Below, piece after piece: positions 799-41,221 of a stretch of 64,000 bases of DNA; position 1 is the stretch's first letter; each line of letters begins with the position of its first letter. A program made the translations under genes and the position numbers. The notes beneath the pieces were generated by a model, which saw only the letters and a list, made by a program, of their open reading frames with translations, was not told the origin of the DNA and searched no databases. Origin of the DNA: an uncultured Isosphaeraceae bacterium (lineage in GTDB: Bacteria > Planctomycetota > GCA-002687715); the NCBI GenBank assembly GCA_964507445.1, contig CAZDQF010000012.1:65989-129988 (forward strand). Reading direction: 5' to 3'.

Positions 799-2937
<2,139 letters not shown>

Positions 2938-15580: not shown

Positions 15581-15603
15581 GGTCAGAACGGTACACTGCG
15601 GCC

Positions 15604-17163: not shown

Positions 17164-20100
17164 CTATAGCCGGTCCGGGAACTTGCCCCAGGTCACGGAG
17201 TACCCGAGGGGCGCCAAGGGGTTGATGAACGCACCCTGCACGGTGATCTGGATTCCGAGTGGGGGGTTGGGAAGGGTGAAGGGTCCCAGGTCGAAGTGTC
17301 CGTTCGGGTCCATGGTGGCGCCGGAGGGCGGGGCGAAGGTGCCGATGCCGTCCACCAGCGGGATGATGCTCGGCGCCGGGTAGGGCAGCACGGAGAGGAC
17401 GAAGTCCCCGGTGGGGTTCGGCCACGGGTAGATGGGCGTCGGGTTGCTCACGTCCACGACGCAGAGGAAGGGCATGTTGGGCATGCCGTTCTCGAAGTGG
17501 GCGATGTAGGTCTCGCCGGGTAGCGGGCCGAGCGGATGCCGGATCCCGATGCCGAGGTTGCTCGCGGGGCCGCCCACAGAGTGAGCCTTCGGATTGGACG
17601 GCACCGTGTGGGCGTTCTCCACCGCGATGGCGACCCCGCCTCGCTGCTGCACTCCGGGGTGCGTGCCCGGGATCTGGCACTGCAATTCCGTCGAGCTGAT
17701 GAACGTGGTGGAGAGCGGGAACTCATCGGCATAGGCCACGGTGCCCGGGTGGAAATTGGCGCCGAAGATGGTCACCGGATGGGGCGGGCTGGCGGGGTTC
17801 ATGATCGGACCGCCTGCAGGCTGCAGAGACGAGATCACGGGGGCGAGGACCGGGAACGGCAAGGCGCCGGAGATGCCGCCGAAGCCCATGCCGGTCACGT
17901 CGATGTTCTCCACGTCGATGTTCGCGGTCCCGGGTTGTCCGATAAGCGCTGCGGACACCAACCCCTGGACCTGCGTGTTCGAGACGTAGGTGGTGGGGAT
18001 CGCCGTTCCGTTCCAGCGCACCATGGTGGCGCCGTCGAAGAACCCGGTTCCGTTGACGTTCATGGTGAACGTGACGTCGCCGGCGATGGCGGAGGTGGGC
18101 GCTGTGGACGTCAGCGTCGGCGCCGGAATGACGGTGTTGAAGGCGATGCTCGACACCCCGCTGCCGACGGTGGGCGCCGGATTCGTCACGATGACGGAGA
18201 ACGTTGACAGGGCGGTGATGGACGACGCGGGGACCGTGGCCGTCAGCGTGTTGGCGTTGACGAACGTGGTCGCCAGGTTCAGGCCGTCGAAGCTGATGAC
18301 CGCACCCTGGACGAAGTTCGTGCCGTCGACGGTGAGCAGGAACGCGGGTCCCCCGGCGAAGGTCGTGGCCGGCGTGGTGGAGGTCACGACCGGGTTGGGA
18401 TTGTTGATGGTGAAGGTGGCCGCGGCACTGGTGCCTCCTCCGGGAGCCGGGTTCTCCACGGTCACCGCTGCGTATCCCGCGGATGTGACGAGGCTGGCCG
18501 GGATACCGCAGGCAAGTTGGCTCGATGACACGTAGGTCGTCGGCTGCGGAGCGCCGTTCCACCGGACTACAGAATTCGTGGTGAATCCGGTTCCCTGCAC
18601 GGTGAGAGTGAAGGACGGGTCATTCACGACCGCCGACGGGGGATTGAGGGAGCCGATGGCTGGAACGGGGTTGGTGATGGTGAACGTCTGTCCGTTGGAC
18701 GTGCCGCCGCCGGGCGCCGGACTCTGCACCGTCACCGTAGCGACGCCGGGGCTCGCGATCAGCGCCGCGGGTACGGTCGCCGCAAGCGTCGACGAGTTCA
18801 TGAAGCTCGTGCTCAGAGGCGTGCCGTTCCAGTGGACGATGGAGCCGAGGGCGAAGCCTGATCCGTGGACGGTGAGGCCGAAGGACGGCCCGCCGGCCGG
18901 GGTGGAGCTCGGAGTCATCGCCGTCGTGGAAGGAGCCGGGTTCGGTACTTGTTCCACCAGCATGGTGAACCCGAAGTAGGTCGCTGCGGAGACCGGTCCG
19001 GTATCGGTGGTGCAGACGATGGCGTGGAGACCGGGCGACAAGCTGACGGTGGACGTGACCCCGTCAACGCCGCTGGCGATGGCCGAGCCCCGTGGCCTGA
19101 AGTCGGCGTTCGTCCCAGGGTCGAACAGGCGCCACTTCAAGGGCGCGGCGTTGGACATGGTGATGTTGTAGTTTCCTGCGACGGGCGCGTCGAACTGGAA
19201 CAACCGGATGACCTCGTAGGCGTTCCAGTTCTGAGGGAGGGATGGCGTACCCACGGTGAGCGGATGACCCGATCTCGACTTGATGCGCGCGCTGCCGGTG
19301 CCGCCGACGCGGCTGGCCACGCCGTGAAGCGGGCTGACCGTGCCGTTGTCCCCGTTAGCGACAACGAACTCCGACACGGCACCCGGGGATTGAGAGAAGG
19401 CGGAGCCCACCCCCAGGTCCCAGTCAGAAGTGGATTGCAGTCCCACCGCGACCCATCCCCCGGCCTGGGCCGTGAAGGTGAACGGACTGCAAGGCTCCGA
19501 GATGGTCCAGGCGCTGGACCCCTGGAGATGCGCCAACGCGGTCGTCCTGTAGTGCACGGCGCCGCTCCAGACTCGGGGTGAGAACGTCGCGCCGAAAGGA
19601 TAGGTTTTCCCGGCCCCCTCGAGGATCTGGAGGTTCGCGTCCGCCGCGAAGACCGCGCCGGGAGAGGTGCCGACGAGGTCGTTCATGGCCGCGCCATTGG
19701 TCACCGTGACGTAGAACCCCTGGGTAGAGCCCGCCGCCAACGAGACCATCAGGCCGATGGGCAAAGGCGTCGGGACGTTGCCGCCGTTGGACACGACGCC
19801 CGTCGCTGCGCCGGCCAGGGTCCATGCGCTTGGATCGTTTTCCTTACCGATGAACGTGCCCCCACCGGTCACCGTGTAAACCTCCAAGTCCCAGGTCCCC
19901 GGGTCCAGGTTGACGTCGAAGCCGCAGATGCTGACGTCGTTGATCGCCACCAGATCGAACATGTTGCCGGCCTGTCCGCTGTTGGCGGCGAAGGTGGTGC
20001 CCAGGCTCGTCGTCGGAGTCGGACCAACGACCGTAAAGGGTAAGGATGAAGAGACGCCGCCGCCGGGCCCGGTCGTCTCCACGTCCACGCTGACGACTCC

Positions 20101-23100
20101 AGCGCTTGCAAGGAGGGACGACGTCGCGTAGCCGCGGAGTTCATTCGCAGAGATGAATTGCGTCGTCAACGCCGTTCCGTTCCACCGGACCGTGGAGTCA
20201 CCGCTGATGAACTGGGACCCCATGACGGTCAACCAGAATCCCGGAGTCCCGACGGATACGCTGGTGGTGCCCAGCGACGTTAGCGTGGGAGTCGGGTTCT
20301 CGACCGTGAAGGTGGTGAAGGCGCTGCCACCTCCGGGGGCCGGGTTCTCGACACCGATGGATGTGATGTTGGCGAAGTTGAACCAACCCTGGGAGTTGGT
20401 GAGCGTCACGGTGACCGTGTTGGCGTCGATGAACGTGGTCGGAAGCGCGTTGCCGCCGCCGTTGCCGAACCTGACCACCGAAGTGGAGTTGAAGTTCGAT
20501 CCGTTGACCGTGACCAGGAGCGGACCGCTGCCGAGGAGCGCCGTATCCGGAGTCACCGAGGAAATCGTGGGCGCGGGATTGGTGATGTCGAAGGTCAAGG
20601 GGGCGGAGATGCCGCCTCCAGGTCCCGAGGTCTCCACGTCCACCGCTGCGGTTCCGGGCAAGGCGATGAGCGGCGAGGGGACCGTGGCGCGAAGCTGAGT
20701 GGCGGAGACGAACGCAGTGAGGAGAGGCGTCCCGTTCCAGCGCACGGTGGAGGACCCGTTCACGAAAGCCGAGCCGTTGACGTTGAGCAGGAACGTCGGA
20801 CCTTCGGTGAGGACGGAGGGCGGGTCCAGAGAGGTGGGCGCGGGCGCCGGGTTCTCCACAGTGAAGGTGGTCGATCCGAAGCCGCCGCCGGGTGACGGGT
20901 TGGTGACGCCGACGATCACCGTGCCCGCGGCCGTGAGCGCCCCGCAGGGCACGGTCGCGGCGACCGTGTTGGCATCGACGAAGGTCGTCGCGAGGCTGAT
21001 GCCGTCGAAGCTGATCACCGAACTTGGGACGAACTCGGAACCGTTGACGGTGATGGGGAACGCTCCGCCCCCGTTCTCGTACCAGGCGACCTTGTGGTCA
21101 GGGTCGGTAGAGAAACCTCCGAATGCCAGCGACGCGGAGAGGACGTCCATGTCACAGTCGCCGTCAAGGTCCGCGGCGAAGACGCATTCGGGGGACTCAA
21201 CGTCCATGGAGATCGCGGAGGGCGGTCCGAAGCTGCCGCCGCCCAGATTCTCATACCACGTAATTTGCTCCGGAGAACTCCCGCCGGACGCGCCGGACGC
21301 GGAGAGCACGTCGGTGTCGCCGTCGCCGTCGAGGTCTGCGGCAAACACGCTCGTGGCGGAATCAGCGCTGGCGCTGACCACCTGCTGCGGTCCGAAGCTG
21401 CCGCCGCCCATGTTCTCGTACCACGCGATCTTGTCGTCCGTAATTGAAGCCGAGAGCACGTCACGGTCGCCATCACCATCGAGGTCCGTGGCGAACACGC
21501 TCGTCCCTCCCCACACGCCAGTGGGGGTGCCTGCTGGCCCGCTCAGCCATTGCTCGGCGCCGAAGCTGCCGCCGCCGGTGTTCTCGTACCACGCGATCCT
21601 GTCCTGAGACGCGTGGAGCACGTCGGTGTCCCCGTCGCCGTCAACGTCGATGGCGAAGACACTGCGGGCGCTGCCCGCACTCGTGGTGATGACTTGCTGG
21701 GCACCGAAGGTGCCGCCGCCGGTGTTCTCGTACCAGGCGATCTTGTTGTCGAGGGGGGAAGCGGAGAGCACGTCGTGGTCGCCGTCCCCGTCCACGTCGG
21801 CGGCGTGCACGCACCAGGCGCCTGCCGCGAGGGTCGTGATGACCTGCTGGGGTCCGAACGTGCCGCCGCCGAGGTTCTCGTACCAGGCGATCTTGTCGTC
21901 GTCAAAGGAGGCGGAGAGGACGTCCGCGTCATTGTCGCCGTCGAGATCGATGGCGAAGACGCTGGTGCCTCGCTGGAGGGTGGAGGGTATGGAGTACGTC
22001 GTGACCGCTTGCATGGTGCCGAAGTTGCCGTCCCCCAGGTTCTCGTACCAACCGATCGTGTGGAGAAACGCTGCGAGGACGTCGAGGTCGCCGTCGCCGT
22101 CCAGGTCTTCGGCGTAGACGCTTCGCGGTTCACGTTGATCCAGACCATTGGTGTACGGGCTGAGCACCTGCTGCGGTCCGAAGCTGCCAAGGCCGCCGAT
22201 GACCGCCGAGGACGGCGACGTGGACGTCACCGTCGGTACCGGGTTGACGGTGTTGAACGCGACGGAGGAGTATCCGCTGCCGATGGTGGGTGCGGGGTTC
22301 ACGACGCCGACGGTATAAGTCCCAATCCCGGCGATGGACGAGGCCGGGACGGTCGCCGTGAGGGTGCCCGCGTTCACGAACGTGGTCGCCAGGTTCAGGC
22401 CGTCGAAGCTGATCACGGACGTCGGGACGAAGTTCACGCCGTTCACCGTCAGGAGGAACGCCGGACCGCCGGCGGCGGCGGTGCTCGGAGTGGTGGAGAC
22501 GACCAGCGGGTCCAGGTTGTTCACGGTGAAGGTGTTCGCCGTGCTGACGCCGCCGCCGGGAGCGGGGTTCTCCACGGTCACCGCTGCGTACCCTGCCGAC
22601 GCGACGAAGCTCGCGGGGATGGCGCACGTCAGCTCGCTCGATGTCACGTAGGTCGTCGGCTGCGGAGCGCCGTCCCATTGGATGACGGAGCTCGACGAGA
22701 ATCCGGTGCCGATCACGGCGAGGGTGAACGCCCCGCCTCCCACCAGGGTCGATTGGGGAGTCAAGCCCGTGATGGTCGGCACGGGGTGCCCGATGGTGAA
22801 AGTCTGGGTCGTCGAGATGCCACCTCCGGGGGTCGGGTTCTGGACGCTGACGCTGGCGGTGCCGAACGTCGCCACCAGAGACGCGGGGACGGCTGCCGTG
22901 AGCTGGGAGGCGCTGACGAACGTGGTGCTCAGCGGCGCTCCGTTCCACTGGATGGTGGCGTTGGATGCGAAGCCGGACCCGTTGGCCGTCAGGGTGAAGC
23001 CGCCTGCGCCGGCGGTCGTTGCCGCGGGCGAGATCGACGTCAGCGCGGGCACCGGGTTCTGGGGCTGCGGCTCAACCAGCATGGAGAAGGTGAACGGCGT

Positions 23101-26100
23101 TCCCACCAGGCCGCTGTCGGTGGTGCAGACGATGGCATGCCAGCCTGGTGACAGGTTGACGGAGGAGGTCACCCCGTCGACGCCGTTGGCGATGGCGGCG
23201 TCCCGTGGCCTGAAGTCCGAGGTGGTCCCCGGGTCGAACAGACGCCACTTCAGGGGCGCCGCGTCGGACATGGTGATGTCGTACGTGCCCGCTGTCGTCA
23301 CACTGAATTCGAACGTCCTGATGACGCGGTTGGTGGGCCACGAGGCGATGGTGTAGGGCGTCCCCATGGCGAGCGTCACGTTGTAGGAACGCATGATGCT
23401 GGCGCCGTCCGTGCCGCTGACCCGGCTGGCGATGCCGTTGGCCTGATTGACGGGGCCGTTGCGGCCGTTGGCGATGACGAAGTCGGTGATGGCTCCCGAG
23501 GATCGGGAATGGACGCCGCCGATGCCGATGTCCCAGTCGGAGGTGGAGGCGCAGCCGACGGCGTTCCAGCGATTGAAGTCCAGAGTGAAGCTGAACGGGC
23601 TGCAAGGGTTGACGACGGATACCGGTACGGCGGTTGGAAGGGTGGTGTTCTGGAGCGCCGTCGGGCTGTAATGGACGGTGCCGTTCCAGACCCGGGGCGA
23701 GTACGTGCTTCCGAAGGGGTAGGTCTTTCCGGCTCCCTCCAGGATCTGGAGATTGGAATCCGCGGCATAGACCGCGCCGGCGGTCGTGCCGTTGGTGTAC
23801 TTGATGCCCGAGCCGTTGGTGACGGTGACGTAGAAGCCCTGGGTCGTGCCCGCCGTCATCGGCGTCATCAGGCTGATGGGGAGCGGCGTCGGGGCATTCA
23901 GGCCGTTGGAGACCACGCCGGCGGCCGACCCGATCAGAGTCCAGGCCGAGGAGTTGGTCTCGTTGCCGACGAAGGTGCCGCCTCCGGTGACCCCGTAGAC
24001 CTCGAGGTCCCACGTCCCCACGTCGAGGTTGACGTCGAAGCCGCAGATGCTGACGTCGTTGATGGCCACCAGATCGAACATGTTGCCGGCCTGGCCGTTG
24101 TTGCTCGCGAAGGTCGTGGTCAGTCCCGTTGCCTGGGAGAAGTTGTTGATGATGAAGGGCAAGGACGCCGAGGTCCCGCCCCCGGGGAGCGGGCTCTCCA
24201 CCAACACCGCCGCCGTGCCCGTCGTGGTCAGGAAGTTGTCCCCCACCAGAGCCTTGAGGGTGTTGCCGTCCTCGAAGGTGGTGGTCAGGGTGGTGCCGTC
24301 GAACTTGACCGTGGAGTCGGCGACGAAGCCGGACCCGCTGACCGTGATCTGCAACGGATCGAAGGTGTTCTCGTACCAGGTGATCGCGGAAGTGCTGAGG
24401 GACAGGGAGAGGATGTCGAGGTCGCCGTCGCCGTTGAGGTCGCTGGCGAACACGTTGTTGGCGTAGTCCGCCGTGGTGGAGACGACGTTCTCGGGCCCGA
24501 AAGAGCCGCCGAGGTTCTCGTACCAGGCGATCTTGTCGTCGAACCGGGACGCCGACAGCACGTCGCGGTCGCCGTCGCCGTCCAGATCGGCGGCGAACAC
24601 GCTCACGGCGCCGTCGGCGCTGCTGCTGATCACCTGCTGGGTCCCGAAAGACCCGCCGAGGTTTTCGTACCAGGCGATCTTGTCGTCGCCTTGAGACGCG
24701 GAGAGGACATCCACGTCGCCGTCGCCGTCGAGATCGGCGGCGAAGACGCTACGGGCGCCCTGCGCGTTGGTGGTGATCGTCTGCGGGGTACCGAATCCCC
24801 AGGGGAAGTTCTCGTACCAGGTGATGCGGTTGTCGCCCTGGGACGCCGACAGCACGTCGGCGTCACCGTCGCCGTCAAGGTCCGCGGTGAAGACGTCCAT
24901 GGCGCCCATCGCGTTGCTGGTGATCAAGTGCTGGGGCCCGAAGGAGCCGCCGATGTTCTCGTACCAGGCGATCTTGTTGTCATCGCGGGACGCGGAGAGG
25001 ACGTCGAGGTCGCCATCCCCATCGAGGTCCGCGGCGTGAACGGCGTAGGCGTAGGCGAGGTTGCTGGTGATCACCTGCGGTGCGCCGAAGGACCCGCCGC
25101 CGAGGTTCTCGTACCAGGCGATCTGGTTGCTGGGCAGGGAGACCGAGAGGACGTCGAGGTCGCCGTCGTTGTCGAGGTCGCCCGTGTGCACGTCAACGAA
25201 ATGACTGTAGGTACCAGCGTGGACCACGACGTTTTGCGGGGCTCCGAAGGATCCGCCGAGGTTCTCGCACCACCGGACGGCGTTGACCGTGGTGCCGAGG
25301 ATGTCGTTGTCGCCGTCACCGTCGAGGTCGGCGGCGTGGACGTCCCATGCGAAGCCAAAGCCCGTCGCGATCACCTGCTCCGGGCCGATTCCACCGGCCG
25401 GAGTGACGACGGGGCTGCTGTCCGGGGTGACCGAGGTCAGCGTCGGGACCGGGTTCACGAAGGTGACCGTGAACGGCGTCGAGGCCGACGTCCCGCCGCC
25501 TGGCGACGGGTTGAAGACCTCCACGTCGTGGGTCCCTGCCGTGGCGACGTAGCTCGCCGGGATGGTGCATCGCAAGAGGCCGGGCAGCACCAGGGTGGTG
25601 GGCTGGCTCAGGCCATTCCATCGGATCACCGAGCTGGTGTTGAAGCCGGAGCCGAGGAGGTCGAGGCTGAAGGACCCGCTGCCGGCGGTGGTGGAGGACG
25701 GGAACATGCCGGTGACCGAGGGCGTCGGGTGACCGATGAGTAGGGTCTGGCTCGGGGAGAATCCGCCCCCCGGGGCCGGGTTCTCGATGCTGATGGCAGC
25801 GGTTCCGACGGTGGCCGTGAGGGATGAGGGTACGGATGCCGTGAGCTGGGACGTGCTGACGAAGGTGGTGGCCAGAGGGGTGTTGAGAGTCGTGCCGCTC
25901 CAGTGGACCATCGCGCCCGAGACGAAGTTGGAGCCGTTGGCGGTCAGGGTCAGGGTGCCGCCGCCGACGGTCGCTGACGTGGGGGCGATCGACGTCAAGG
26001 TGGGTAACGGGTTCGATCCAGGGATGCTGTCCACGCGGACCTGGAACGACAGGCTGCTGGCGGGCGCACCGAAGGGGTGGGTGACGGCGATGGCGTGCCA

Positions 26101-29004: not shown

Positions 29005-29048
29005 TCACTCCACGATATGCGATTGGGATGGTGGCTCTGAACGCGTTG

Positions 29049-29077
29049 ATTTGAATGAAAAAGGCGGATTGCGTCAA
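29049..29077 (-). promoter_or_regulatory. Candidate sigma-70-type promoter of the giant gene (-35 TTGACG, 17-bp spacer, -10 TCAAAT)
   Basis: Read on the minus strand in a locally AT-richer stretch about 45-75 nt upstream of the ATG at 29004. A sequence-pattern match only. Confidence 0.25.
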
Positions 29078-29254
29078 TAGCCCATCACAGTCCAGTCCTG
29101 GATTGCCCCATTGCATTGGGATCAGTCCTTCCGGCTGTCCCTGGACTCGCACACCATGCGTGATTGCGCGACCCATTGGCGTCACGGACTGGTCCCGCCC
29201 AGGAGTCTGTAGCTCGAGAGTCGCAGTGCTCCGGGAGTTGCGACTCACCCCGGG

Positions 29255-29330
29255 GAGCGCGGAGGGGTTCAAGGTGGGCCGAGACAACGAGCTCAAGAAG
29301 AGCGGCGGGGGGGCGTGTGCGCATGAAGAG
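29255..29330 (+). pseudogene. Remnant of the 3' end of a parallel beta-helix gene (duplicate of 17020-17088)
   Basis: The nucleotide run gcggaggggttcaaggtgggccgagacaacgagctcaagaag, encoding SAEGFKVGRDNELKK, matches the C-terminus of the 15604-17088 protein (AEGFKVGRDNELKKNRKGRVRVK). Only about 25 codons remain and they then diverge. It lies just 3' of the second giant gene, the same relative position as the intact copy. Confidence 0.55.
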
Positions 29331-29362
29331 ACCGCGTCACTCCACAGGGAGTGACGCGGTCT
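29329..29362. terminator. Perfect 15-bp stem / 4-nt loop hairpin downstream of giant gene 2 (putative terminator)
   Basis: agaccgcgtcactcc-acag-ggagtgacgcggtct. Same relative position as the 17131-17158 hairpin. Confidence 0.5.
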
Positions 29363-29392
29363 GTTTCACGCTGCCTGGTGGCTCAGAGAGTC

Positions 29393-32300: not shown

Positions 32301-34129
32301 TGGCACGGGTCGGTGATGGTCGTCGGAACGTTGTCCGTGAGCAGGATTGACCCCGTCGCCGAGCACACCGTGACCGCGAGGCTGGTGGGGCTGACCGCCG
32401 CGACGCCGTCGTCCTTGTAGACCACGATGACGTGCCATCCGGTGTTCAGGGTCGCGCCCTGGTATGTGGAAAGGCCGACGGTCCCGCTGGCCTCCAGGGT
32501 CGTGGAGGTGCGGCTGCGCCATCCGGCGTTCGACCCCGGTGCGTACAGCCGCCAGTTGAGGTCGCTGCTGCCGCTGACGGTGATGTCGAAGCTGCCCGCG
32601 GCCGTGACCTCAAACTCGAACATCTGCATCACGTCGGTGGACCCCCAGGAGCTGGTCTCCGTCTCGCCGACCGCGAAGGTCTGGGCTTCGAGGAGGTCTG
32701 CGTAGGCGTTGGAGCCGCCGGAGAAGCGGTTCAGCTCGCCGGAGGTGGGCGCGACGGTTCCGAGGCGCCCGTTGGCGATGATGAAGTCGCAACTGCCGCC
32801 ACCGAGGACCGACGACGCATCTTCGTGGATCAGGTCCCAATCGCTGGCCGACGTGATACCGAAGCCGACCCAGCTGTTGGCCGCAGGTGTGCCGTTGAAC
32901 ACCTGGAAATCGCAGGTCACCGGGTCGGCGGCCCCGCTCTGCGAGCTGGCCAGGAACTGGGTCGAGCACCCGACGGTCTGTGCGATGGCCGTTTGCAGCG
33001 CTGGCCGGAGAATGCTGGTCCCGCTGTTGGAGCTGGTGGAGCTGGTGCCGCAGCCGCCGTTGGTGTGGATGCCGATGGCCAGGCCCGTCGCGGTGTCGAT
33101 GATGGGGCTCCCGGAGTTGCCGCCCTCGGTATCCACCCGGTGGCGGATCTGGTCGCCTACGTACCCGAAGTGCGTGCCGGTGTCCGTCTGTTGATCGTAG
33201 GCGCGGGTAGCGTTGTTGCTGTCATCCCCGTGTCCGGTGACGCGGAGGTTGGGCACCACGAACGGCGGGATGTACGCCGGCAAGGTCGTGGCCAGGCTAA
33301 AGAATGAACCCTGGTTGCCGAAAGCCGTGGTGCCTGTGGAGTTGGGGTGCAGGCGCGCGACGGCCCAGTCGTCGCCGCCTCCCGGCAGGCCCAGATTTTC
33401 GAACTGGATGGTGGATTGATCCACCGGGTACTGATCTGCGACGGGTGGGTGCTGGGCGCAGCCTGCGGCGTTGGATGCCGGGGTGTTGAATTCGGCGATG
33501 ACAAACCAGTCCGGCAGCGGGTCGGCGCAGTGGCCGGCGCCGAGGATGGTGTTGGTCGAGCTGATCAACCAACCGGTGCAGGAGCCGCACGACGCGGCCG
33601 TCATGACGAGTCGGCAGACGCGTGCGTCATTGCTCAGGGTCCGCTCGTCGCCGCTGCCGCAGATGGTGTTGGACGTGCCCAGGATGGGCTGGATCCCCGC
33701 GTAGACGGTGCGGATGACGATCTGGCCGGTGGAGCCTGGCGCCAGCTCGATGGCCACGTCCACACGGTCTCCGTTGAACCACGCGGTGTGGTTCCGCCAC
33801 TGCTTCAGGCGCAGGTGATCGAGCCGCTGGGTCTCCCCGTCTCGCGGGTTGGTCAGGATGACGGCGTCGTCAGGACCGATCTCGACGGTGTCGAAGAGCA
33901 ACTGGAGCGAATGGGCCCCGGTGACCTGGATGGGTGCGCTCCACGCTCGCCAGGGGATGTCCCTGCCGTTGCTCACCAAGCCCGAAGAGGCGGGGTAGTT
34001 GACCGCGGTGGCGATAGGTGCAGAGGGTTGGGCCACGACCGAAGGCATGGTCGCGGCGACGAGGAGGAGCGTCAGCGCTCCGAGTGCGGTGACTCGGCCG
34101 ACAGGCCGGACACTGATGGAGAGGGACAT
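29393..34129 (-). CDS. Large (about 1578 aa) secreted trypsin-like S1 protease with pre-peptidase-like repeats, about 6 IPT/TIG domains and a conserved C-terminal domain (paralog of the 17164-29004 protein)
   Basis: Internal Met MSLSISVRPVGRVTALGALTLLLVAATMPSVVAQ is a signal peptide, preceded by RBS AGGAAG. The ATG at 34129 was checked. The protease region aligns with gene 1 (SLQLLFDT...NPRDGE.QRL...WRNHTAWFNGDR; AGHC; GNSGSPI). The C-terminal 170 aa is shared with gene 1. Confidence 0.85.
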   Translation of the reverse strand: MSLSISVRPVGRVTALGALTLLLVAATMPSVVAQPSAPIATAVNYPASSGLVSNGRDIPWRAWSAPIQVTGAHSLQLLFDTVEIGPDDAVILTNPRDGETQRLDHLRLKQWRNHTAWFNGDRVDVAIELAPGSTGQIVIRTVYAGIQPILGTSNTICGSGDERTLSNDARVCRLVMTAASCGSCTGWLISSTNTILGAGHCADPLPDWFVIAEFNTPASNAAGCAQHPPVADQYPVDQSTIQFENLGLPGGGDDWAVARLHPNSTGTTAFGNQGSFFSLATTLPAYIPPFVVPNLRVTGHGDDSNNATRAYDQQTDTGTHFGYVGDQIRHRVDTEGGNSGSPIIDTATGLAIGIHTNGGCGTSSTSSNSGTSILRPALQTAIAQTVGCSTQFLASSQSGAADPVTCDFQVFNGTPAANSWVGFGITSASDWDLIHEDASSVLGGGSCDFIIANGRLGTVAPTSGELNRFSGGSNAYADLLEAQTFAVGETETSSWGSTDVMQMFEFEVTAAGSFDITVSGSSDLNWRLYAPGSNAGWRSRTSTTLEASGTVGLSTYQGATLNTGWHVIVVYKDDGVAAVSPTSLAVTVCSATGSILLTDNVPTTITDPCQDFRITAVAGRWNVVGISSPSDWDLVLGSATSYTGGADFALANGHLGTISPIWGQVNRFSGSSDGTMEHQDALSLSATGSNSVDAFAAGEILELREVNLTSTGTYAITVVGDSSISWRFYAPQSDANWVPEASSIASGNGGGGTVNVTVSSTGYHALLLYRNNGPSTDTTTVMSNICSVSTSTTLSGFGVATAAGPCAPFTFSPESGRWNAVGVASASDWDIGVGTGYSRSGGGVTDFVIANGHNGTVTPSNGVSSRFSGADSARLMRSYTVTLNVGTPYTIAGWPANRVIRMFEFDIPSPGSYDITLDNAPNLSWRLHEPGTDASWRSDNDYVALGAAGGTTLTRTFSTTGWHAISVYHATADPSSQPTFSVTVEPTPNPAPSTSSLSPSSAFAGGSSFTLTVNGSNFISGSSIRWNGSNLTTTYVNSGQLTASVSSALIASAGTASVDVETPAPGGGISGSQTFTINNPAPTLSSLSPSSATAGSGAFTLNVSGSNFNGSSVIRWNGLSQSTTLVSSTLVRCTIPAGFITNAGTRNVQVFNPSPGGGITPISTFTVNNPVPTVASVSPASAVVGSGPLAITVNGANFNSSSVIRFNGLGLATTLVSANAVTATVPGASLSTAGSVLVSVENPAPGGGLGSTNFTVENPTPSIVSVAPTFAVAGDATFTMNVNGSDFINGDSQVRWNGGPLPTSFVSSNQLQATVSAALIGTPGTANVDVETAGPGGGASGALSFPVLAPSIINITPSSIPILTAASPAQTITITGTNFHPGTVAYADGYALPTTYLNSSTLSCQVGPTVLGALRRGGLAIAVENAHTVPSNAVACVVGGLGSNAGTVTRNPLAPLPGESYGARCESGLPGFPLLLLADLTNPTPIYPWPSPAADFVLSVRGSQPAVPGDWFVVIDGIGVFGPPIPGIVYDAAGEFTLPGLTLPNPALGWSITVQGAYINPSSPVGFTLQWPRYPDQL

Positions 34130-34392
34130 TACTTCCTGGTTCCTTTGGAATGATGAGGGTCCACTGGGGTGAAACGTCGAGCGGGGGGCGGGAGACCCCC
34201 CAAGTTGTAGTGGATTCACCCGCCGCTGGGGTTTCGTGCGACAAAAAAAAGGGGATTCTGCGATTTGCAGTCGACGAAGGGGCGTCCGGAGCTCCGAACT
34301 GAGTCCCTCGGCCGGCCACGCGGCCTTCGCAAGCGCCTCTCCCGCAGTTACTTGTGCCTGCGCTCCGAGCACTCTGCGGTCGGCGCGAGGCT

Positions 34393-35661
34393 CTATCGCA
34401 GGCTGAGGCTCAGGGCGCCGCCCTGGCCGCCGCCGATGCAGAGGGTCGCGAGGGCTCTCGAGCCGTGGCGGCGTCTTAGTTCCAGGAGGCTGGTCAGCAC
34501 CAGGCGGGCGCCGGTCATCCCCACGGGGTGTCCCATGGCGATGGCGCCCCCGTTGACGTTGAGGCGTTCGGTGGGGATGGTCCCCAGCGGATCGTCTCGC
34601 GAGAGGACGTCCCTGGCGTAATCCCCGTCCTCCGCGGCTCGGAGGCAGGCCAGGACCTGAGCGGCGAAGGCCTCGTTGATCTCGATCAGGTCATAGTCGG
34701 GGAGGGGGGCGTCCGGGTGAAGGCGGCTCATGGCGTGCACCGGTCCCAAGCCCATGCGCCGGGGATCGCACCCCGCGTACGCCCATTCGTCGAGGAAGCC
34801 GAGGGGGGTGAGCCCCATGGTCTCCGCCCACCGTTCGTCCCCTACCAGCAAGGCCACCGCCCCGTCGGTGATCTGGCTGGAGTTGCCGGCGGTCACGGAG
34901 CCGTGGCGACGATCGAACACGGTGCGTAGCCTGGCCAGACGTTCAGGAGTGGAGTCGTCCCGGACTCCTTCGTCATCTCGGAGGACGCCTCCTTGATGGA
35001 CGACATCGAAGGTCTCCTCCCGGAGCTTGTCCCGACCAGCGAGGGCCTTGCGGTGGCTCTCGGCGGCGAATCCGTCTTGCGCGCTGCGTGAGATCGCCCA
35101 TTCACGGGCGAGGAGCTCCGCCGTGTCTCCCATGCCCATGCCCACTACCGGGTCGGTCAGCCCGCGGATGAGCGCGGCCTCCGGGCTGATCATGGAAGGG
35201 CGGAAGCCCACCAGGGTTCGCATCCGGGCCCACACGGAGCGGGCTCGTTGCAGTCGTTTGAACCAGGCCACCGCTCGGGGACGGAACAGGAGCGGGTAGT
35301 TGCTCATGCTCTCCGTCGCGACAGCGGCGAACAGGTCTCCGCGGCCGGCGCGTAGTCGGAGTGCGCACTGGGTGATGGCCTCGAAGCCGGAGGCGCAATT
35401 GCGGTGCACCGTCATGGCCTCGACGGATTCGGGGACGCCGGCACGAAGAGCGATCACCCTGCCGATGTTAGGGGCGTCAGGGCCCTGTCCGACGTTGCCG
35501 CAGACCACCGTGTCCAGCCGTGACGGGTCGACGTCTGTGCGCAGCAGCAGCTCGCGGAGGGCCAGGGTGCCGAGGTCGTCGGCTCCCAGGCGGCGCAGGG
35601 CCCCGTCCATCTTCCCGAGTGGGGTGCGGATTCCGGCCAGGATGCAGAGTCGTTGGCTCAC
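34393..35661 (-). CDS. fadA: Acetyl-CoA C-acyltransferase (3-ketoacyl-CoA thiolase)
   Basis: Thiolase signatures (ILAGIRTPLGK; VHRNCASGFEA; C-terminal NVNGGAIAMGHPVGMTGARL; CIGGGQGGA). GTG start at 35661 overlaps the fadB stop (GTGA). Confidence 0.88.
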   Translation of the reverse strand: MSQRLCILAGIRTPLGKMDGALRRLGADDLGTLALRELLLRTDVDPSRLDTVVCGNVGQGPDAPNIGRVIALRAGVPESVEAMTVHRNCASGFEAITQCALRLRAGRGDLFAAVATESMSNYPLLFRPRAVAWFKRLQRARSVWARMRTLVGFRPSMISPEAALIRGLTDPVVGMGMGDTAELLAREWAISRSAQDGFAAESHRKALAGRDKLREETFDVVHQGGVLRDDEGVRDDSTPERLARLRTVFDRRHGSVTAGNSSQITDGAVALLVGDERWAETMGLTPLGFLDEWAYAGCDPRRMGLGPVHAMSRLHPDAPLPDYDLIEINEAFAAQVLACLRAAEDGDYARDVLSRDDPLGTIPTERLNVNGGAIAMGHPVGMTGARLVLTSLLELRRRHGSRALATLCIGGGQGGALSLSLR

Positions 35662-37652
35662 GAGGACTCCTCCGCCCAGTGAAGCAGGCCGCCCTTCTCC
35701 GGTGGGAACCCGATCCCGAAGACGGTGCCGATGTCCACGTCTTCGGGGCACAGGACGAGGCCCTCCGCCAGGATGGCCTGCGCTTCCGTCACCATCCGAC
35801 CGACCAGCCGCGCGGACAGGTCCGGGTCCGCCGCCGCGTTCCGCCGCGAGGGTCGCCGCTTGCCGTAGGTGTAGAAGCCGCGACCGGACTTCTTGCCCAG
35901 GTGCCCCTTCTCGACCCGCTGTTCGATGCTCGGGTGAAGCTCGAACGGATTCCCGTCCCGTGTCGCCGCGTGTCGTCCGGCGTCGACGATGACGTCGAGG
36001 CCGACCTCGTCCATGAGCCGGAAGGGCCCCATGGGTAGCCCGAAAGCCCTGATGGATGCGTCTACGGACTCCCGGTCCACGCCTCCGTCGCAGATGCGGC
36101 AGGCCTCCAAGAAGTACGGCGCCAGGAGCCGGTTCACCAGGAACCCCGGACCGTCGCCGACGACGATGGGGGTCTTGCCAAGCGCCTTCGCGGCGGCCAG
36201 TCCACGGGCCAGGGTGTGGTCGGAGGTCTTCGCCCCACGGACGATCTCCAGCAGCGGCATCAACCCCGGGGGGTTGAAGAAATGCAGGCCGAGGAACCGG
36301 CCCGGGACCCCCGTGGCGTCCGCCAGCTCATCAACGGAGAGGCTCGAGGTGTTGGTGGCGATCATCGTCCGGTCGGAGGTCTCGGCCACCACCTGGGTGA
36401 GGATGTCGTGTTTGAGCTCCATGCGCTCCGGCGCCGCCTCGATGACGCAGTCCATGGAGCGGAGGCCGTCGATCTTCGTGGACACCGTGAAGCGGGTGCG
36501 GTGGAGGTGTGCCTCCGCTTTGCTCATGTCGCCACGCCGGACGCGCCGCTTCAGTTCGTTCTCGACGCGTCTCAATCCGGCGGCGAGGGCGTCCGGTTGG
36601 GGGTCGATGAGGCGCACGCCGAGCCCCTTGCCGACGGCCAGGGCCGCGATCCCGGCTCCCATGGTGCCGCCGCCGATGACCGCCAGCTCGCGGGGGCCCT
36701 CCGTGTCCCGACCGGCGCCGTAGACCGGTGGCCGGTTCCCGTCCCGGGTGAGGCGGAACAGCCGCAGCAGGTTCTCATGGGCGGAGGTCTGGAGGAGCTT
36801 CAGCACCTCCTGCCGTTCCGACTCCAGGGAGTCGGACGTGGGAGCGGTGACGGAACTCGCCATGACCTCGAGAGCGGCCATGGGCGCCGGAAACCGTCCC
36901 TTGGTCTGCTTCAGGATCGCCTTGCGAGCGAAGCGCTGGGTCAAGGCCCGTCCGGGAGGGGTGTGGTCCAGGAACCGCTGGATCATGCCCTTGCGAGGGC
37001 GCCGGCCGTGTCCTCCCCGACCCCGCTCTTCGATCAAGTCGAGGGCGACAGGGACCAGTTGCTGGCTCGCCACGACGTCGTCCACCAGGCCGAGTCTGCG
37101 GGCCTTGCGAGCGTTGACGGTCTTGCCCGCGGTGACCAGGGGGATGGCCGCCCCCAGGCCGATCAGGCGAGGCAGCCGCGTGCTGCCGCCCCAGGCGGGG
37201 AGGATGCCCAGCTTGGTCTCGGGCAGGCCGAGTTGAGTCTTGGGGTCCTCCGTCGCCAGGCGGGCGTCGCACGCGAGGGCCAGCTCCAGGCCGCCGCCGA
37301 CGCAGACCCCGTCAACGAGCGCGACGGTCACTTGTGGTAGGTGTGCGATGCGTTCGAACAGGTCCTGACCACGGCGGATCATGACCTCGGCCTCTGCTGG
37401 GGACTCCAGGGCGGCCATGGCGTCCACGTCGGCGCCGGCGCAGAACACGCCCGGGACCTCGCTGCGGAACAGGACGCCTCGGAGGTCCTTGTTGGCGACC
37501 AGCTCCTGGAGCAGCTCCTCCAGCTGCTCCACCACACCTTCGCCGATGACGAACGGAGCGTCGTCCTCGGTCCGGAAGGTGACGGCGACGACGCCGTCCT
37601 CTATCTGGTCAGCCCTGATCATCCCCATGTCGCCCGCGGATATCCTAATCAA
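35658..37652 (-). CDS. fadB: Fatty acid oxidation complex alpha subunit (enoyl-CoA hydratase / 3-hydroxyacyl-CoA dehydrogenase), FadB/FadJ family
   Basis: N-terminal crotonase domain (FCAGADVD), central NAD-binding LAVIGGGTMGAGIAA, and a 3HCDH C-terminal domain. About 664 aa. Confidence 0.88.
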   Translation of the reverse strand: MIRISAGDMGMIRADQIEDGVVAVTFRTEDDAPFVIGEGVVEQLEELLQELVANKDLRGVLFRSEVPGVFCAGADVDAMAALESPAEAEVMIRRGQDLFERIAHLPQVTVALVDGVCVGGGLELALACDARLATEDPKTQLGLPETKLGILPAWGGSTRLPRLIGLGAAIPLVTAGKTVNARKARRLGLVDDVVASQQLVPVALDLIEERGRGGHGRRPRKGMIQRFLDHTPPGRALTQRFARKAILKQTKGRFPAPMAALEVMASSVTAPTSDSLESERQEVLKLLQTSAHENLLRLFRLTRDGNRPPVYGAGRDTEGPRELAVIGGGTMGAGIAALAVGKGLGVRLIDPQPDALAAGLRRVENELKRRVRRGDMSKAEAHLHRTRFTVSTKIDGLRSMDCVIEAAPERMELKHDILTQVVAETSDRTMIATNTSSLSVDELADATGVPGRFLGLHFFNPPGLMPLLEIVRGAKTSDHTLARGLAAAKALGKTPIVVGDGPGFLVNRLLAPYFLEACRICDGGVDRESVDASIRAFGLPMGPFRLMDEVGLDVIVDAGRHAATRDGNPFELHPSIEQRVEKGHLGKKSGRGFYTYGKRRPSRRNAAADPDLSARLVGRMVTEAQAILAEGLVLCPEDVDIGTVFGIGFPPEKGGLLHWAEESS

Positions 37653-37670
37653 CCCCGGGCCGCAGGGGGA

Positions 37671-38585
37671 TCAGCGAATCGAAGCCCAGCCCGGGTTGAG
37701 GTGGGGCAGCAGCTCGTCGCGGACGTTGGCGGCCGCCGCGCGACCACGCTCCGCCATCTCCGCCGCCTGGTTGAAGTCTGACCAGGGGAGGCTGTCCACG
37801 TCAGGGTGGATGATGACATCCGCGAGGGAGAGGACGTGGTCACGGAACACCGTCCCGGCGATCTCCTCCATCCTCATCATGACCCCGAGGGCGGTCTCGC
37901 AAGTCTCGAGGGGGGTCACCGCCCGGCTCACGTCTGCCGCGATGACCAGGGACGGGTTGTAGTAGCGACACTCCTGGGTTGGCAACGGAGAGAAGATGCC
38001 GATGTCCGAGAGCAGCATGCCGTCCAACTCCACCGGCGGGAAGATGCCAGGGAGCGAGGCGGATCCACGGACCGCCTTTCGGAGATTGCCCTTCTCGAGG
38101 ACCACCCGCCTGCCGCTACGAAGATCGATGGCCACGATGGTCAGGGGAATGCTGGCGTCGGCGATGTCGGCGTCGGGCAGCACGTTGTCGGCGACGTCCT
38201 TGAGCAGCTGGGATGCCAGCAGGCCCTTCTTGGTCACCACGCGGTTGAACATCCGGTTGGCGCGGAGGTACTCGCGGATCTGGTTGAACCAGCCGACCCC
38301 GCCGTCCTTGCCGTCTCCGTTCTGGTTCTGACCTCGGCTGGCGCCCATCATGGACTTCTGGTGCGTCTGGAATCGGTCGCTGGTCACGTAGTCGATGACC
38401 CGCTTGGAGATCACGTCGGCGTCGGGCTCGAAGGCATAGGCGGCGCCAACGATGCTGCCGATGCTGACGCCGACGATGCGGTCCGGTCGGATGGGGCTCT
38501 GCTCCAGCACCTCGAGGACGCCAAGGTGAGCGAGCCCGCGGGCGCCGCCGCCACCGAGAGCGACCACCACCGGACCACGGCTCAT
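37671..38585 (-). CDS. Patatin-like phospholipase family protein
   Basis: Oxyanion hole GGGGARG, nucleophile elbow GVSIGS (GxSxG), and a downstream catalytic Asp region. ATG overlaps the stop of the upstream ligase gene (ATGA). Confidence 0.82.
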   Translation of the reverse strand: MSRGPVVVALGGGGARGLAHLGVLEVLEQSPIRPDRIVGVSIGSIVGAAYAFEPDADVISKRVIDYVTSDRFQTHQKSMMGASRGQNQNGDGKDGGVGWFNQIREYLRANRMFNRVVTKKGLLASQLLKDVADNVLPDADIADASIPLTIVAIDLRSGRRVVLEKGNLRKAVRGSASLPGIFPPVELDGMLLSDIGIFSPLPTQECRYYNPSLVIAADVSRAVTPLETCETALGVMMRMEEIAGTVFRDHVLSLADVIIHPDVDSLPWSDFNQAAEMAERGRAAAANVRDELLPHLNPGWASIR

Positions 38586-40093
38586 GGGGTCGTGCCCTGC
38601 TGCTCGGGGATCAACTGCGTGCGGCGGTCCACGATGCGGACCTCCTTCATCTCTTCCTCCATGCCGACGCGTCGCAGCAAGGAGTTGACGTCTTCGATGA
38701 CCACCTCGTTCAGGTGAAGCTCGCAGCGTTCACTGACCACGTCCTGGATTCGATGTCGGAAGCGGTCCCGGTCCGCCCCGTCCTTGAGCGCGGCGTAGAG
38801 GACCAGCTCGTCCGTCTCGAAGGGGTCGTCGTTGAGCTTGCGGATCTCAAGTTGCCATTCCTCGACCTCCAGGTCGCCGCTGAAGGCCTCCGAGAGGGTG
38901 TTGAGGTTGACGAGGCAGCCCTTCACCTTGCCGATGTCCAGGCTCTTGACGTTGGACGTGCGTTGGATGTCGGACATGATCCGCGGGACGGTGCGCCCAC
39001 ATCCCGGGCAGGGCTCGGAGACGATGCCGCCTTGGACGATATCCCCGGTCCTGTAGCGCAGGACCACGCTGCCCCGCCCGTCGAGGGATGTGTAGACGAG
39101 CTCCCCCGTCTCGCCTTCCGGCAGCGGCTCGCCGCTGTCGGGATCGACGATCTCGAACAGAGCCAGGTCCGGGTACGTGTGGAACCCGGTCCGACGAGCG
39201 CCGGTGCACTCCGCCCAGCATTGCCGGGCCTCCGTGAATCCGAGCACGGAGGCGACGCGGACGTCCTCGGCGCCGCACTCGGCCATGAGCTCGACGACCT
39301 TGCGTTTGAAGCCTGCCGGCACGTTCTCGCCACCCAGCGCGACGATGCGCACCGAAGACATGTCGAGCCCGTGTTCCATCATGCGTCGGAGCACGTGATA
39401 GTAGTAGCCGGGCATGGCGACGATCACGGTTGGCTTGAGCCGCTCGAACGCGGCGATCAGCCGATCCGTGGGCATGGAGCGACCGCCGCCGGTGTTCAGG
39501 GACAGGGTCCCCGTGGCGATGCCGGCGAAGGTGGTCTGCCAGAAGGCGAGGTGCGGCGCGTAGGGGAACAGGTTCAGGACCCGGTCGTCCCCCGGCCGGA
39601 TACCCACGACCTCTGACAGGCGCCGTCCGGACTCCATGAGCAGTCGGTGGTCATAAGGAGTCAGGAAGAACGGGATGGACCCGGAGCTCCGACCTGTCGT
39701 GAAGAACATGCTGCATGGGTTGAACTCCCGGAAGAGTCGTTCCCGTAGTCGCTTCTTGCCCAGCAGGAGCTTCGTGCCCAGGAGCTTGAGCTTCTCGCTG
39801 GTCGGCAACGCCGTCTTGATCAGGTGCTCGTTGGGCTGGAGGATCAGGTCCTTGGGGCCGTTCGGATGGGCTTCGCTGACCAGGATGTCGGCCTTCGTCG
39901 TGAACGGGATGCGGCGCAGGTCGTCCAATGTGCGGACGTCTCCCGCCTCCAGGCCAGCGGACTCGAACAGCCTCCTGTACAAGGGGCTGAACGGGAGTAC
40001 CCGCGTCCTCAGGTGTTTCCTGAGCTTGGCTTCCTGGAGGGCTCGGATCTCTCCGGCGGAGAGATGACCCCAGGATCCTCTGTTGCCCACCAT
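38582..40093 (-). CDS. Phenylacetate-CoA ligase-like (PaaK / coenzyme F390 synthetase family) adenylate-forming enzyme
   Basis: N-terminal LQEAKLRKHLR...IPFTTKADI, typical of PaaK-family ANL enzymes. About 500 aa with an AMP-binding core and a C-terminal domain. Confidence 0.7.
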   Translation of the reverse strand: MVGNRGSWGHLSAGEIRALQEAKLRKHLRTRVLPFSPLYRRLFESAGLEAGDVRTLDDLRRIPFTTKADILVSEAHPNGPKDLILQPNEHLIKTALPTSEKLKLLGTKLLLGKKRLRERLFREFNPCSMFFTTGRSSGSIPFFLTPYDHRLLMESGRRLSEVVGIRPGDDRVLNLFPYAPHLAFWQTTFAGIATGTLSLNTGGGRSMPTDRLIAAFERLKPTVIVAMPGYYYHVLRRMMEHGLDMSSVRIVALGGENVPAGFKRKVVELMAECGAEDVRVASVLGFTEARQCWAECTGARRTGFHTYPDLALFEIVDPDSGEPLPEGETGELVYTSLDGRGSVVLRYRTGDIVQGGIVSEPCPGCGRTVPRIMSDIQRTSNVKSLDIGKVKGCLVNLNTLSEAFSGDLEVEEWQLEIRKLNDDPFETDELVLYAALKDGADRDRFRHRIQDVVSERCELHLNEVVIEDVNSLLRRVGMEEEMKEVRIVDRRTQLIPEQQGTTP

Positions 40094-40207
40094 TGCGATT
40101 GCCTGTACGGATCATCCCTCGCTTCGGAGGGAGGTTTCCGGTGTGCCACCGGCGGATCCGCTCCCATGTGCACCATCGGCACGGGAGGGGCCTGATGGAG
40201 AGGCCTC

Positions 40208-40864
40208 TTAGAGATACTTCAGGGGGTTCTCCCCGAGGACCCGTCTCCAGTGCTCAAGGCCTCGCTTCAATTGCTGGGAGACCGTGTTCTTCTTCACGTT
40301 GAGGATCTCCGCAATCTCCGTGCGGCTCTTGCTTTGCAAGCAGGCCAGGTCGAGCACCTCGCGGTACGTCTCCGGCACGGTCTCCAGGGACTCGACCAAC
40401 CGCTGCCGCAGGTCCTTGCGGCCGATCTGCGTCGCCGGACCGGCACCCGTCGCGGCGGGATCTCCTCGCGGTGCGTCGCTGTCGTCGTTGGGATCGAGAG
40501 CTGCCAGATCCTCCCTGCCTTCGTCGTGACGACAGCGGTCGAGGATCACCCAGTGCACCTGTTTGCGGAGCCAGTCGAGGAAGCTCCCCTTCTTGCGGTA
40601 CTCGAACTGATCGATCTTGCGGATGGCTCGCCACCACGCTTCGTTGATGATCTCGTCCGGATCGTGCCGCGTCCGCATGGCCGGGCCCAGCTTGTGGGCG
40701 ACGAACAACCGCAGGCGCAGAGCATAGCGACGTTCGAGGAACTGGAGCGCTCCTCCAGCGTTGGCGTCCCGCCGGAGGGCCTGCACCCAGACCTCCGAGT
40801 TCTCGTGCTCCGCCGGGTCCGGGAGGGACCCCGAGTTCTGTGGACTGTCTTGTGACTCAGCCAT
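40208..40864 (-). CDS. ECF-type RNA polymerase sigma factor (sigma-70 family, regions 2 and 4)
   Basis: Region 2 (DEIINEAWWRAIRKIDQFEYRKKGSFLDWLRKQV). Region 4 HTH (YREVLDLACLQSKSRTEIAEILNVKKNTVSQQLKRG). The track ORF's low-complexity His/Arg-rich N-terminal extension (to 41686) is rejected because it overlaps the divergent transporter gene. Start is MAESQ at 40864. Confidence 0.8.
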   Translation of the reverse strand: MAESQDSPQNSGSLPDPAEHENSEVWVQALRRDANAGGALQFLERRYALRLRLFVAHKLGPAMRTRHDPDEIINEAWWRAIRKIDQFEYRKKGSFLDWLRKQVHWVILDRCRHDEGREDLAALDPNDDSDAPRGDPAATGAGPATQIGRKDLRQRLVESLETVPETYREVLDLACLQSKSRTEIAEILNVKKNTVSQQLKRGLEHWRRVLGENPLKYL

Positions 40865-41186: not shown

Positions 41187-41221
41187 CCGGGTGCCGTCAG
41201 GTGCCCGGGCCGTTTTTTTTG
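41187..41221 (+). terminator. Intrinsic (rho-independent) terminator in the 5' leader/intergenic region upstream of the DASS transporter gene
   Basis: cccgggtgcc-gtca-ggtgcccggg is a 10-bp stem (two G-U pairs) with a 4-nt loop, followed by ccg and a T8 run. It lies 70 nt upstream of the transporter ATG on the same strand. Confidence 0.55.

Follow-up and report, generated by a model that had tools for sequence, protein, structure and literature searches.

A PaaK-fold ligase operon with patatin and beta-oxidation genes in Planctomycetota, and the ECF sigma factor gene that adjoins it in one lineage

In the fad operons, which are the closest described systems (fadIJ with fadK or fadD in Escherichia coli, fadXDEBA in Staphylococcus aureus), an acid-coenzyme A (CoA) ligase is linked to a FadJ/FadB-type fusion protein and a FadI/FadA-type thiolase, and the genes for the alpha and beta subunits are translationally coupled. 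In eukaryotes, the route from lipolysis to oxidation begins with the patatin-domain lipase ATGL/PNPLA2, continues with an acyl-CoA synthetase and ends with beta-oxidation. Here we describe a gene module that works like a fad operon, but with a ligase of the PaaK branch and a built-in patatin lipase. It is found in a 64,000-nucleotide (nt) stretch of DNA from an uncultured Isosphaeraceae bacterium (assembly GCA_964507445.1, contig CAZDQF010000012.1, positions 65,989 to 129,988; hereafter the window), within a run of seven genes. A preliminary description of this DNA, made from the letters alone, had proposed that all 24 kb of the run form one functional cluster, and this proposal is only partly right. 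In our opinion the run is probably a series of adjacent transcription units that share a strand and not one system; its core is a ligase-patatin-FadJ-thiolase operon (40093-34393), and the two giant genes beyond it are unrelated.

We established the gene series from an open reading frame (ORF) listing, Pfam and NCBIfam scans and independent gene calls on metagenome scaffolds of one population that are identical to the window (ENA SUTE22-1 series). From its 5' end it reads:

40864-40208, minus strand: extracytoplasmic function (ECF) sigma factor, 218 amino acids (aa)
40093-38582, minus strand: PaaK-like ligase, 503 aa
38585-37671, minus strand: patatin, 304 aa
37628-35658, minus strand: FadJ-like hydratase/dehydrogenase, 656 aa (start codon from the gene call and the sequence)
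35661-34393, minus strand: FadI-like thiolase, 422 aa, GTG start
34129-29393, minus strand: giant gene 2, 1578 aa
29004-17164, minus strand: giant gene 1, 3946 aa

The series of seven minus-strand genes from 40864 down to 17164 is therefore as it was first described, although seven genes sharing one strand are by themselves unremarkable. What joins the lipid genes is more specific. The stop codon of the ligase overlaps the ATG of the patatin (ccccATGAgcc, 38585-38582), and the stop codon of the FadJ-like gene overlaps the GTG of the thiolase (ctcGTGAgcc, 35661-35658). Both the ATGA and the GTGA junction had been pointed out before; they are present in the sequence, and such stop/start overlaps recur in relatives whose ligases are 61-81% identical to that of the window (clade B, see below). 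The other gaps of the run measure 114 nt (sigma/ligase), 42 nt (patatin/FadJ), 263 nt (thiolase/giant 2) and 388 nt (giant 2/giant 1). In a single operon from 40864 to 17164 every junction would be short or overlapping, terminators would be lacking inside it and the gene order would be kept, and the run does not have this combination.

Homologues of the window genes come almost all from metagenome-assembled genomes of Planctomycetota. For comparison we searched with the ligase, which gave 80 genome loci and further metagenome contexts, and scored the neighbours by tblastn with the window proteins; the counts below refer to 84 distinct loci, with the window itself excluded. The patatin and/or the thiolase/FadJ pair directly adjoins the ligase in 78 of the 84, at a median gap of 39 nt, and in the remaining six the sequence downstream of the ligase ends within 4.5 kb. 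A neighbour-joining tree of the ligases falls into three clades, which correspond to three gene arrangements:

Clade A: ligase-thiolase-FadJ
Clade B, to which the window belongs: ligase-patatin-FadJ-thiolase; one Kuenenia genome with ligase-FadJ-thiolase also falls here
Clade C: ligase-patatin, with the housekeeping genes tmk and holB next in order

Overlapping codons tie the ligase to both core beta-oxidation enzymes in about half of all loci, while clade C, which makes up a third of the loci, has the ligase and the patatin without beta-oxidation genes. Unbiased clustering of neighbouring ORFs then brought out a patatin in clade A as well: in 23 loci a divergent patatin gene lies about 140 nt upstream of the ligase. 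Therefore the pairing of ligase and patatin holds in all three clades. The clade A patatin carries a fused C-terminal 4Fe-4S ferredoxin domain (Fer4; L079:615-1805, minus strand, and 22 other loci), a fusion that suggests a redox-linked lipase. The four enzymes stand as a conserved operon.

The anammox bacteria are included in this picture. In the Kuenenia stuttgartiensis genome mentioned above, also metagenome-assembled, the ligase is directly followed by FadJ and thiolase (L023, 10001-14731). A Kuenenia gene in a different place, kuste3344 ('paaK'), is a member of a proposed ladderane gene cluster and has different neighbours (PMC3477478, PMC4790861), hence it is not evidently the same gene. 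Our literature searches returned no description of a module that combines a patatin with a PaaK-type ligase or with beta-oxidation genes in Planctomycetes.

In the ligase itself, Pfam recognizes AMP-binding (PF00501) in residues 164-334 only. The match to the PaaK phenylacetate-CoA ligase model TIGR02155 scores 108.4 bits, where the equivalog cut-off is 646.3; scores for the PaaK, FlxY and F390 models are far under their cut-offs, and indeed the protein stays below every NCBIfam equivalog cut-off. It is not of the FadD type either: a full-length AMP-binding plus AMP-binding_C architecture at the family cut-off is lacking, and models of the FadD/FadK type match it partially, with E values of 1e-7 to 1e-3 and 16-30 bits against cut-offs of 476-766. 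An AlphaFold2 (AF2) model with a pLDDT of 83 superposes on PaaK1 and BT_0428 with a template-modelling (TM) score of 0.87, normalised to the target (2Y27, E = 7e-34), and also on 2-hydroxyisobutyryl-CoA ligase, at 19-24% identity to these structures. The protein has the two-domain adenylate-forming fold of the PaaK type together with its core motifs (P-loop, TE, YRTGD and C-terminal Lys), and the adenylation motifs TTGR, GFTE, YRTGD and KxKG are invariant across 22 homologues of the ligase.

Compared with PaaK (PDB 2Y27, 2Y4N; BT_0428, 4R1L), then, the fold and the core adenylation motifs are the same, but the window ligase is only 21-24% identical, has an insertion of about 40 aa ahead of the P-loop, carries another pocket motif and has no paa genes nearby. 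The pocket motif, YAPHLAFWQ, is specific to the family, invariant among the homologues, and stands in for the aryl-pocket region of PaaK. The insertion is built of basic amphipathic helices (residues 98-124), which hints at an association with membranes or lipids. Ring-oxidation genes of the paaABCDE/G/Z set appeared neither in the window nor in the inspected contexts; in 78 of the 84 loci the neighbours of the ligase are patatin, FadJ and thiolase genes. Annotations as 'PaaK' or 'phenylacetate-CoA ligase' in Planctomycetota are, in our opinion, probably wrong; judged by its gene neighbours, the ligase is predicted to activate fatty acids to acyl-CoA.

The patatin scores 97 bits with PF01734 (gathering score 27.7) and shows the glycine-rich oxyanion motif GGGGARG (GGGxRG), the GxSxG serine in GVS41IG and the dyad aspartate in D194-I-G, which are together the marks of a patatin-like phospholipase. 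Across 50 orthologues, conservation of the S41 and D194 motifs is at least 95%, and the Ser/Asp catalytic dyad is kept. With no signal peptide, the protein is predicted to be a cytoplasmic lipid acyl hydrolase. The FadJ-like protein has the fused ECH_1, 3HCDH_N and 3HCDH domains of FadJ/FadB alpha subunits; its best NCBIfam match is FadJ at 513.6 bits (equivalog cut-off 869), and with FadB it scores 460 (cut-off 870), so that it stays below both. The thiolase, with Thiolase_N and Thiolase_C, passes the subfamily model TIGR01930 (378.3 bits, cut-off 240.55) and falls short of the FadI equivalog (340 bits, cut-off 560).

The operon shares with the fad operons both the linkage of ligase, fusion protein and thiolase and the translational coupling of the two subunit genes. 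It differs in that the ligase is of the short PaaK/F390 branch and not FadD or FadK, in that a patatin is built in and an acyl-CoA dehydrogenase is not, and in that the cut-offs of the FadJ and FadI equivalogs are not reached. From these neighbours we infer the following order of reactions as the most likely and most economical one. The patatin would cleave an ester-linked acyl or hydroxyacyl chain off an intracellular lipid; the ligase, as a stand-in for FadD from another branch of the adenylate-forming superfamily, would adenylate the released acid and convert it to a CoA thioester; and the FadJ-like hydratase/dehydrogenase and the FadI-like thiolase would shorten the chain to acetyl-CoA. 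The logical order of enzymes, with a patatin-fold lipase first, would be that of the ATGL route of eukaryotes. This is an analogy only: here the enzymes belong to one bacterial operon, and the family of the ligase is unrelated to ACSL.

Put in general terms, the PaaK-fold ligase subfamily may be the missing acid-activating enzyme of a lipolysis-oxidation module that spans the phylum Planctomycetota, anammox bacteria included. The constant partner of the ligase would be a patatin, in one clade with a fused 4Fe-4S ferredoxin domain, and the substrate may be an unusual planctomycete lipid. One marine or sediment sub-lineage would possess a private ECF sigma factor for it with no anti-sigma factor. 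We offer this as a tentative proposal, which taken as a whole may well turn out to be wrong. Against our main explanation of the operon and its sigma factor stand the following points. An acyl-CoA dehydrogenase is absent from the operon and from its conserved neighbours, thus complete beta-oxidation of saturated chains needs genes elsewhere. Many genomes link only the ligase and the patatin. In the closest syntenic relative (L010, 12536-14149, and L095, 11332-12915) the sigma factor, ligase and patatin genes are kept, while FadJ and thiolase are locally missing, having been lost or never present there, and therefore degradation need not belong to the linked module. According to the descriptions of the structure matches, the characterised enzymes of the PaaK family all use aryl-acetic or small hydroxy acids and not fatty acids. 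Finally, the link with the sigma factor rests on five to seven fairly closely related lineages, and no promoter motif is common to the regions 5' of the sigma factor gene and of the ligase gene.

Some of these points fit other readings of the same genes. One of them is lipid remodelling or biosynthesis, the role that the preliminary description had assigned to the set: the patatin would remove or transfer an acyl group, the ligase would re-activate it for re-acylation in a Lands-cycle-like manner, and the chain would be modified or provided by FadJ and thiolase. Patatin-fold enzymes are capable of transacylation, and the loci without beta-oxidation genes (clade C, L010) would suit such a role. 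Genes of lipid metabolism are also sometimes near, namely a divergent PlsC-type acyltransferase upstream in the window and a PAP2 phosphatase upstream in L007. These two neighbours are not conserved, however; the annotated recurrent neighbours comprise neither an acyl carrier protein nor an acyltransferase, and the joining of the ligase to the core beta-oxidation enzymes in about half of the loci speaks against remodelling. We consider remodelling a possible but unlikely role, and breakdown fits the gene associations better.

A second alternative keeps the direction of breakdown but changes the substrate, to a 3-hydroxy acid, which a polyester or 3-hydroxyacyl lipids could supply, or to another small or aromatic acid. 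An esterase, the ligase, a 3-hydroxyacyl-CoA dehydrogenase and the thiolase would then suffice, and no acyl-CoA dehydrogenase would be needed; indeed, none occurs in any conserved neighbourhood. It also agrees with this idea that the nearest solved relatives of the ligase are phenylacetate-CoA ligases and the 2-hydroxyisobutyryl-CoA ligase, the latter of which has also been crystallised with a 3-hydroxy-acyl adenylate. On the contrary, neither paa genes nor a polyhydroxyalkanoate synthase gene was seen in the window or in the inspected contexts, YAPHLAFWQ occupies the place of the PaaK aryl-pocket region, FadJ keeps its hydratase domain, and the helix insertion would fit a lipid-associated enzyme. 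A special substrate is in our view rather improbable. We nevertheless keep both this reading and remodelling in consideration, since no acyl-CoA dehydrogenase is linked and ligase-patatin-only genomes are many.

A role of the patatin in anti-phage defence, finally, we regard as extremely improbable. It is suggested by a weak similarity of the patatin to models of CBASS and of defence phospholipases, but the scores are 22-29 bits where the cut-offs are 200-400, and PADLOC gives no meaningful match for the other four proteins. As a candidate CBASS patatin effector the protein shows a generic patatin similarity and no partner genes, which does not make it a member of such a system. Moreover, the locus is a single-copy syntenic core locus that lies beside housekeeping genes across the phylum.

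The proposed breakdown of lipids by the conserved module is of interest because lipid turnover in Planctomycetota is poorly understood, although these bacteria make unusual lipids. As a single-copy protein family whose genes stand beside a patatin and/or the beta-oxidation core in nearly all the genomes examined, the ligase is a testable candidate for the recycling of acyl chains.

We now turn to the sigma factor. The protein consists of Sigma70_r2 and r4_2 only and scores 72.4 bits with TIGR02937 (cut-off 42.9), which places it among the ECF (group 4) factors; its best subfamily match, to a Planctomycetaceae-specific model, has 79 bits and does not reach the cut-off of 184, and one of its orthologues matches PF07638. 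It was correctly noted before that this gene heads the cluster and has no anti-sigma gene beside it: downstream lies the ligase, upstream a divergent transporter, and no gene is called in either gap. A co-transcribed anti-sigma gene, typical of the ECF family though not universal, is thus lacking here. In this, and in having regions 2 and 4 only, the protein resembles the anti-sigma-less ECF factors of Planctomycetes (groups TIGR02984 and PF07638). It differs from them in having no adjacent Ser/Thr kinase, unlike its next homologue (37% identity, L094), which sits in an unrelated context with a Ser/Thr-kinase/WD40 gene about 4.5 kb away on the same contig. A further difference from other ECF factors is that it is tied tightly to a metabolic operon and not to envelope genes.

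How tightly can be seen from both sides. A search of 5.8 billion proteins gave an orthologue group of seven clusters at 53% identity or more, and these orthologues adjoin the ligase in every inspected context. Starting from the ligase, a sigma factor gene is found 5' of it only in loci with at least 71% ligase identity (L010/L095, L011, L090, L091 and the window), which form a single sub-clade; in L092, with 64% ligase identity, a type II secretion secretin abuts the ligase and there is no sigma factor gene. The genes upstream of the sigma factor are of four kinds: the transporter (window, L010), a secretin of the same type (L011, L090), PilZ (L091) and a sulfatase. From the ligase side and from the sigma side alike, the factor is a partner of the operon that is specific to this lineage. 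Hence the proposed link of sigma factor and lipid genes is real within this lineage, where the two stay together despite differing genes upstream, but for the giant genes it is not supported. In this sub-lineage the operon has probably acquired a dedicated ECF sigma factor gene immediately 5' of it, which either controls the operon or is co-transcribed with it. Such a strict pairing of one sigma factor group with one operon offers a simple natural system for an anti-sigma-less ECF factor that would act on a metabolic operon.

Two upstream regions are relevant to this control:

40984-40997, minus strand: candidate ECF-type -35 block GGAACTCTACCCCC, about 120 nt 5' of the sigma factor start, with xGTC/CCTC 16-17 nt further on
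40094-40207, minus strand: spacer between sigma factor and ligase genes, 114 nt, with two conserved boxes

In the first region the block GGAAY-TCTACCCCC...(C/A)GTC is shared by the window, L091 and L010 and partly kept in L090, which makes three to four of five loci. It looks like an ECF promoter and may function as one; GGAACTCTACCCCC has a single exact copy in the window. The spacer contains, as box 1, CCGATG-N17-TCCG at 40179-40153 (clade pattern CCGAT[AG]-N15-23-TCCG, in 7 of 9 clade B loci) and, as box 2, CCGTACAGG at 40110-40102 (clade pattern CGTA[CG]A[AG][AG], in 8 of 9). Chance expectation per 180 nt is 0.9% for box 1 and 2.4% for box 2, and both are kept whether or not a sigma factor gene is present. 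We infer that these two boxes are an older control element of the operon's own. A terminator scan of the spacer found no terminator-like site on the minus strand, and its fold has a z of -1.5.

It had also been suggested to look for the target motif of the ECF factor upstream of 40093 and of the giant genes. No motif common to the upstream regions of the sigma factor, the ligase and the giant genes emerged. Across the window, GGAAY-N16-17-NGTC occurs 20 times against 11.8 expected, a count reached or exceeded in 1 of 100 shuffles; TGAAY-N16-17-NGTC occurs 9 times against 6.5 expected, which is the level of chance. Nearly all occurrences of both motifs are in coding sequence. Scanned with Rfam, neither the window as a whole nor 40000-41400 (E <= 1) nor five related loci yielded a known RNA family.

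Upstream elements of other kinds occur elsewhere in the family. About 100-150 nt 5' of the ligase in L026/L009 there are at least four tandem copies of ACCCGATAAGA(C/T) at 11-nt spacing; the array looks like protein-binding sites and has a CCGATA core in common with box 1 of the clade of the window. In clade A an element just 5' of the ligase, about 75 nt long (TCTCTAGATCGRCC...GGTTGCCTGAAGNNCGCAACC...GCCGACAACCTAGTACAG), is strongly conserved (L046:9897-9981 and 28 other clade A loci), and its TAGATC is found in 34 of the 84 loci against 1.4 expected. The element is not detectable in the window and is not in Rfam. As a riboswitch or leader RNA it does not hold up: RNAalifold predicted no base pairs, a hairpin drawn by hand showed covariation no greater than shuffled controls, a test of cognate against non-cognate duplexes gave p = 0.82, and a covariance model matched its training sequences and nothing in the window. 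Since the element lies between divergent genes, it is more likely a DNA operator or promoter.

This brings us to the giant genes, which the preliminary description had counted as members of the cluster. The lower limit of the operon and the gap between the giants show two features:

34130-34392, minus strand: gap between thiolase and giant gene 2, 263 nt, with a T8 tract at 34250-34243
29329-29362, minus strand: perfect 15-bp hairpin, beginning 31 nt past the stop codon of giant gene 2

The start of giant gene 2 is the ATG at 34129 (MSLSISV..., MSLSISVRPVGRVTALGALTLLLVAATMPSVVAQ, signal-peptide-like), which has AGGAAG 5 nt upstream, and not the limit of the ORF at 34372; it is from this start that the gap of 263 nt follows. 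The A8/T8 tract is present as claimed, but the terminator role given to it is not supported: a stem of 4 bp only precedes the T8, no terminator is called in the gap, and the gap folds no better than shuffled sequences (z = -0.33). The gap is nevertheless likely a boundary of the operon, though not a canonical terminator. The hairpin past giant gene 2 is of another quality (-46.3 kcal/mol, z = -5.6, none of 200 shuffles folding as well) and is likely a terminator without a U-tract. The 388-nt gap 5' of giant gene 1 holds TTGACG-N17-TCAAAT.

Both giants are predicted to be secreted trypsin-like repeat proteins. The N-terminal Trypsin_2 match is weak in both (28-31 bits), with the His, Asp and Ser motifs visible in a pairwise alignment. 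Giant 2 further has five CoaZ_rpt_PGGG repeats, i.e. choice-of-anchor-Z/TIG repeats, and giant 1 has 12 FG-GAP_3 and 7 TIG stretches in choice-of-anchor-Z/TIG and FG-GAP/VCBS blocks. They are tandem paralogues, 55% identical over the N-terminal 1200 aa or so and 52% identical in a C-terminal block of about 800 aa, with additional FG-GAP/VCBS and CoaZ/TIG blocks inserted in giant 1.

In none of the other species compared do giants lie beside the ligase. In L010/L095 six genes on the upstream side match the window, and next after the patatin comes a PMT_2 glycosyltransferase whose full-length identity with the window gene at 14018-15580 is 56%. By this synteny, FadJ, thiolase, both giants and a plus-strand beta-helix gene fill a lineage-variable segment of 22 kb in the window, which this relative lacks. 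Within it, FadJ and thiolase date back to the ancestor of the clade, and the giants are species-specific.

One could still argue that the whole 24-kb run is a single sigma-controlled regulon or super-operon, for instance an envelope response that unites lipid genes and giant proteases. All seven genes are on one strand, envelope and secreted functions are typical targets of ECF sigma factors, and an ECF-promoter-like match, TGAATCCACTACAACTTGGGGGGTC (TGAATC-N16-GGTC, 34218-34194, minus strand), lies about 65 nt 5' of the start of giant gene 2. This match is the only intergenic one in the run, but the count of such motifs in the window is at the level of chance, as stated above, and the block upstream of the sigma factor has no second copy. 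Together with the restriction of the giants to this species and its variable insert, the gaps of 263 and 388 nt and the strong hairpin, this makes one regulon very improbable in our opinion, and the inclusion of the giants in the cluster is not supported. The giant protease-like genes need an explanation of their own.

The limits of the run at 40864 and 17164 hold as they were claimed, because the flanking genes on both sides are on the plus strand:

15553-17088, plus strand: beta-helix protein gene, next below the run
about 41294-43069, plus strand: DASS/CitMHS-type transporter gene, next above the run

The surroundings, in a window with a G+C content of about 67%, are ordinary chromosomal genes such as UvrD, MutS, RtcB, ThiF and a sigma-54 activator. 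The last, whose input domains are FHA and GAF (window 799-3153, minus strand), depends on sigma-54 and has no relation to the operon. In the 430-nt divergent gap above the sigma factor gene there is, at 41184-41221 on the plus strand, a strong terminator-like hairpin whose 12-bp stem has 10 G-C pairs, with T8 behind it. In the sense orientation of the transporter gene it lies about 73 nt before the transporter start, is kept in L010 and has no Rfam match; it could be an attenuator or a riboswitch-type leader.

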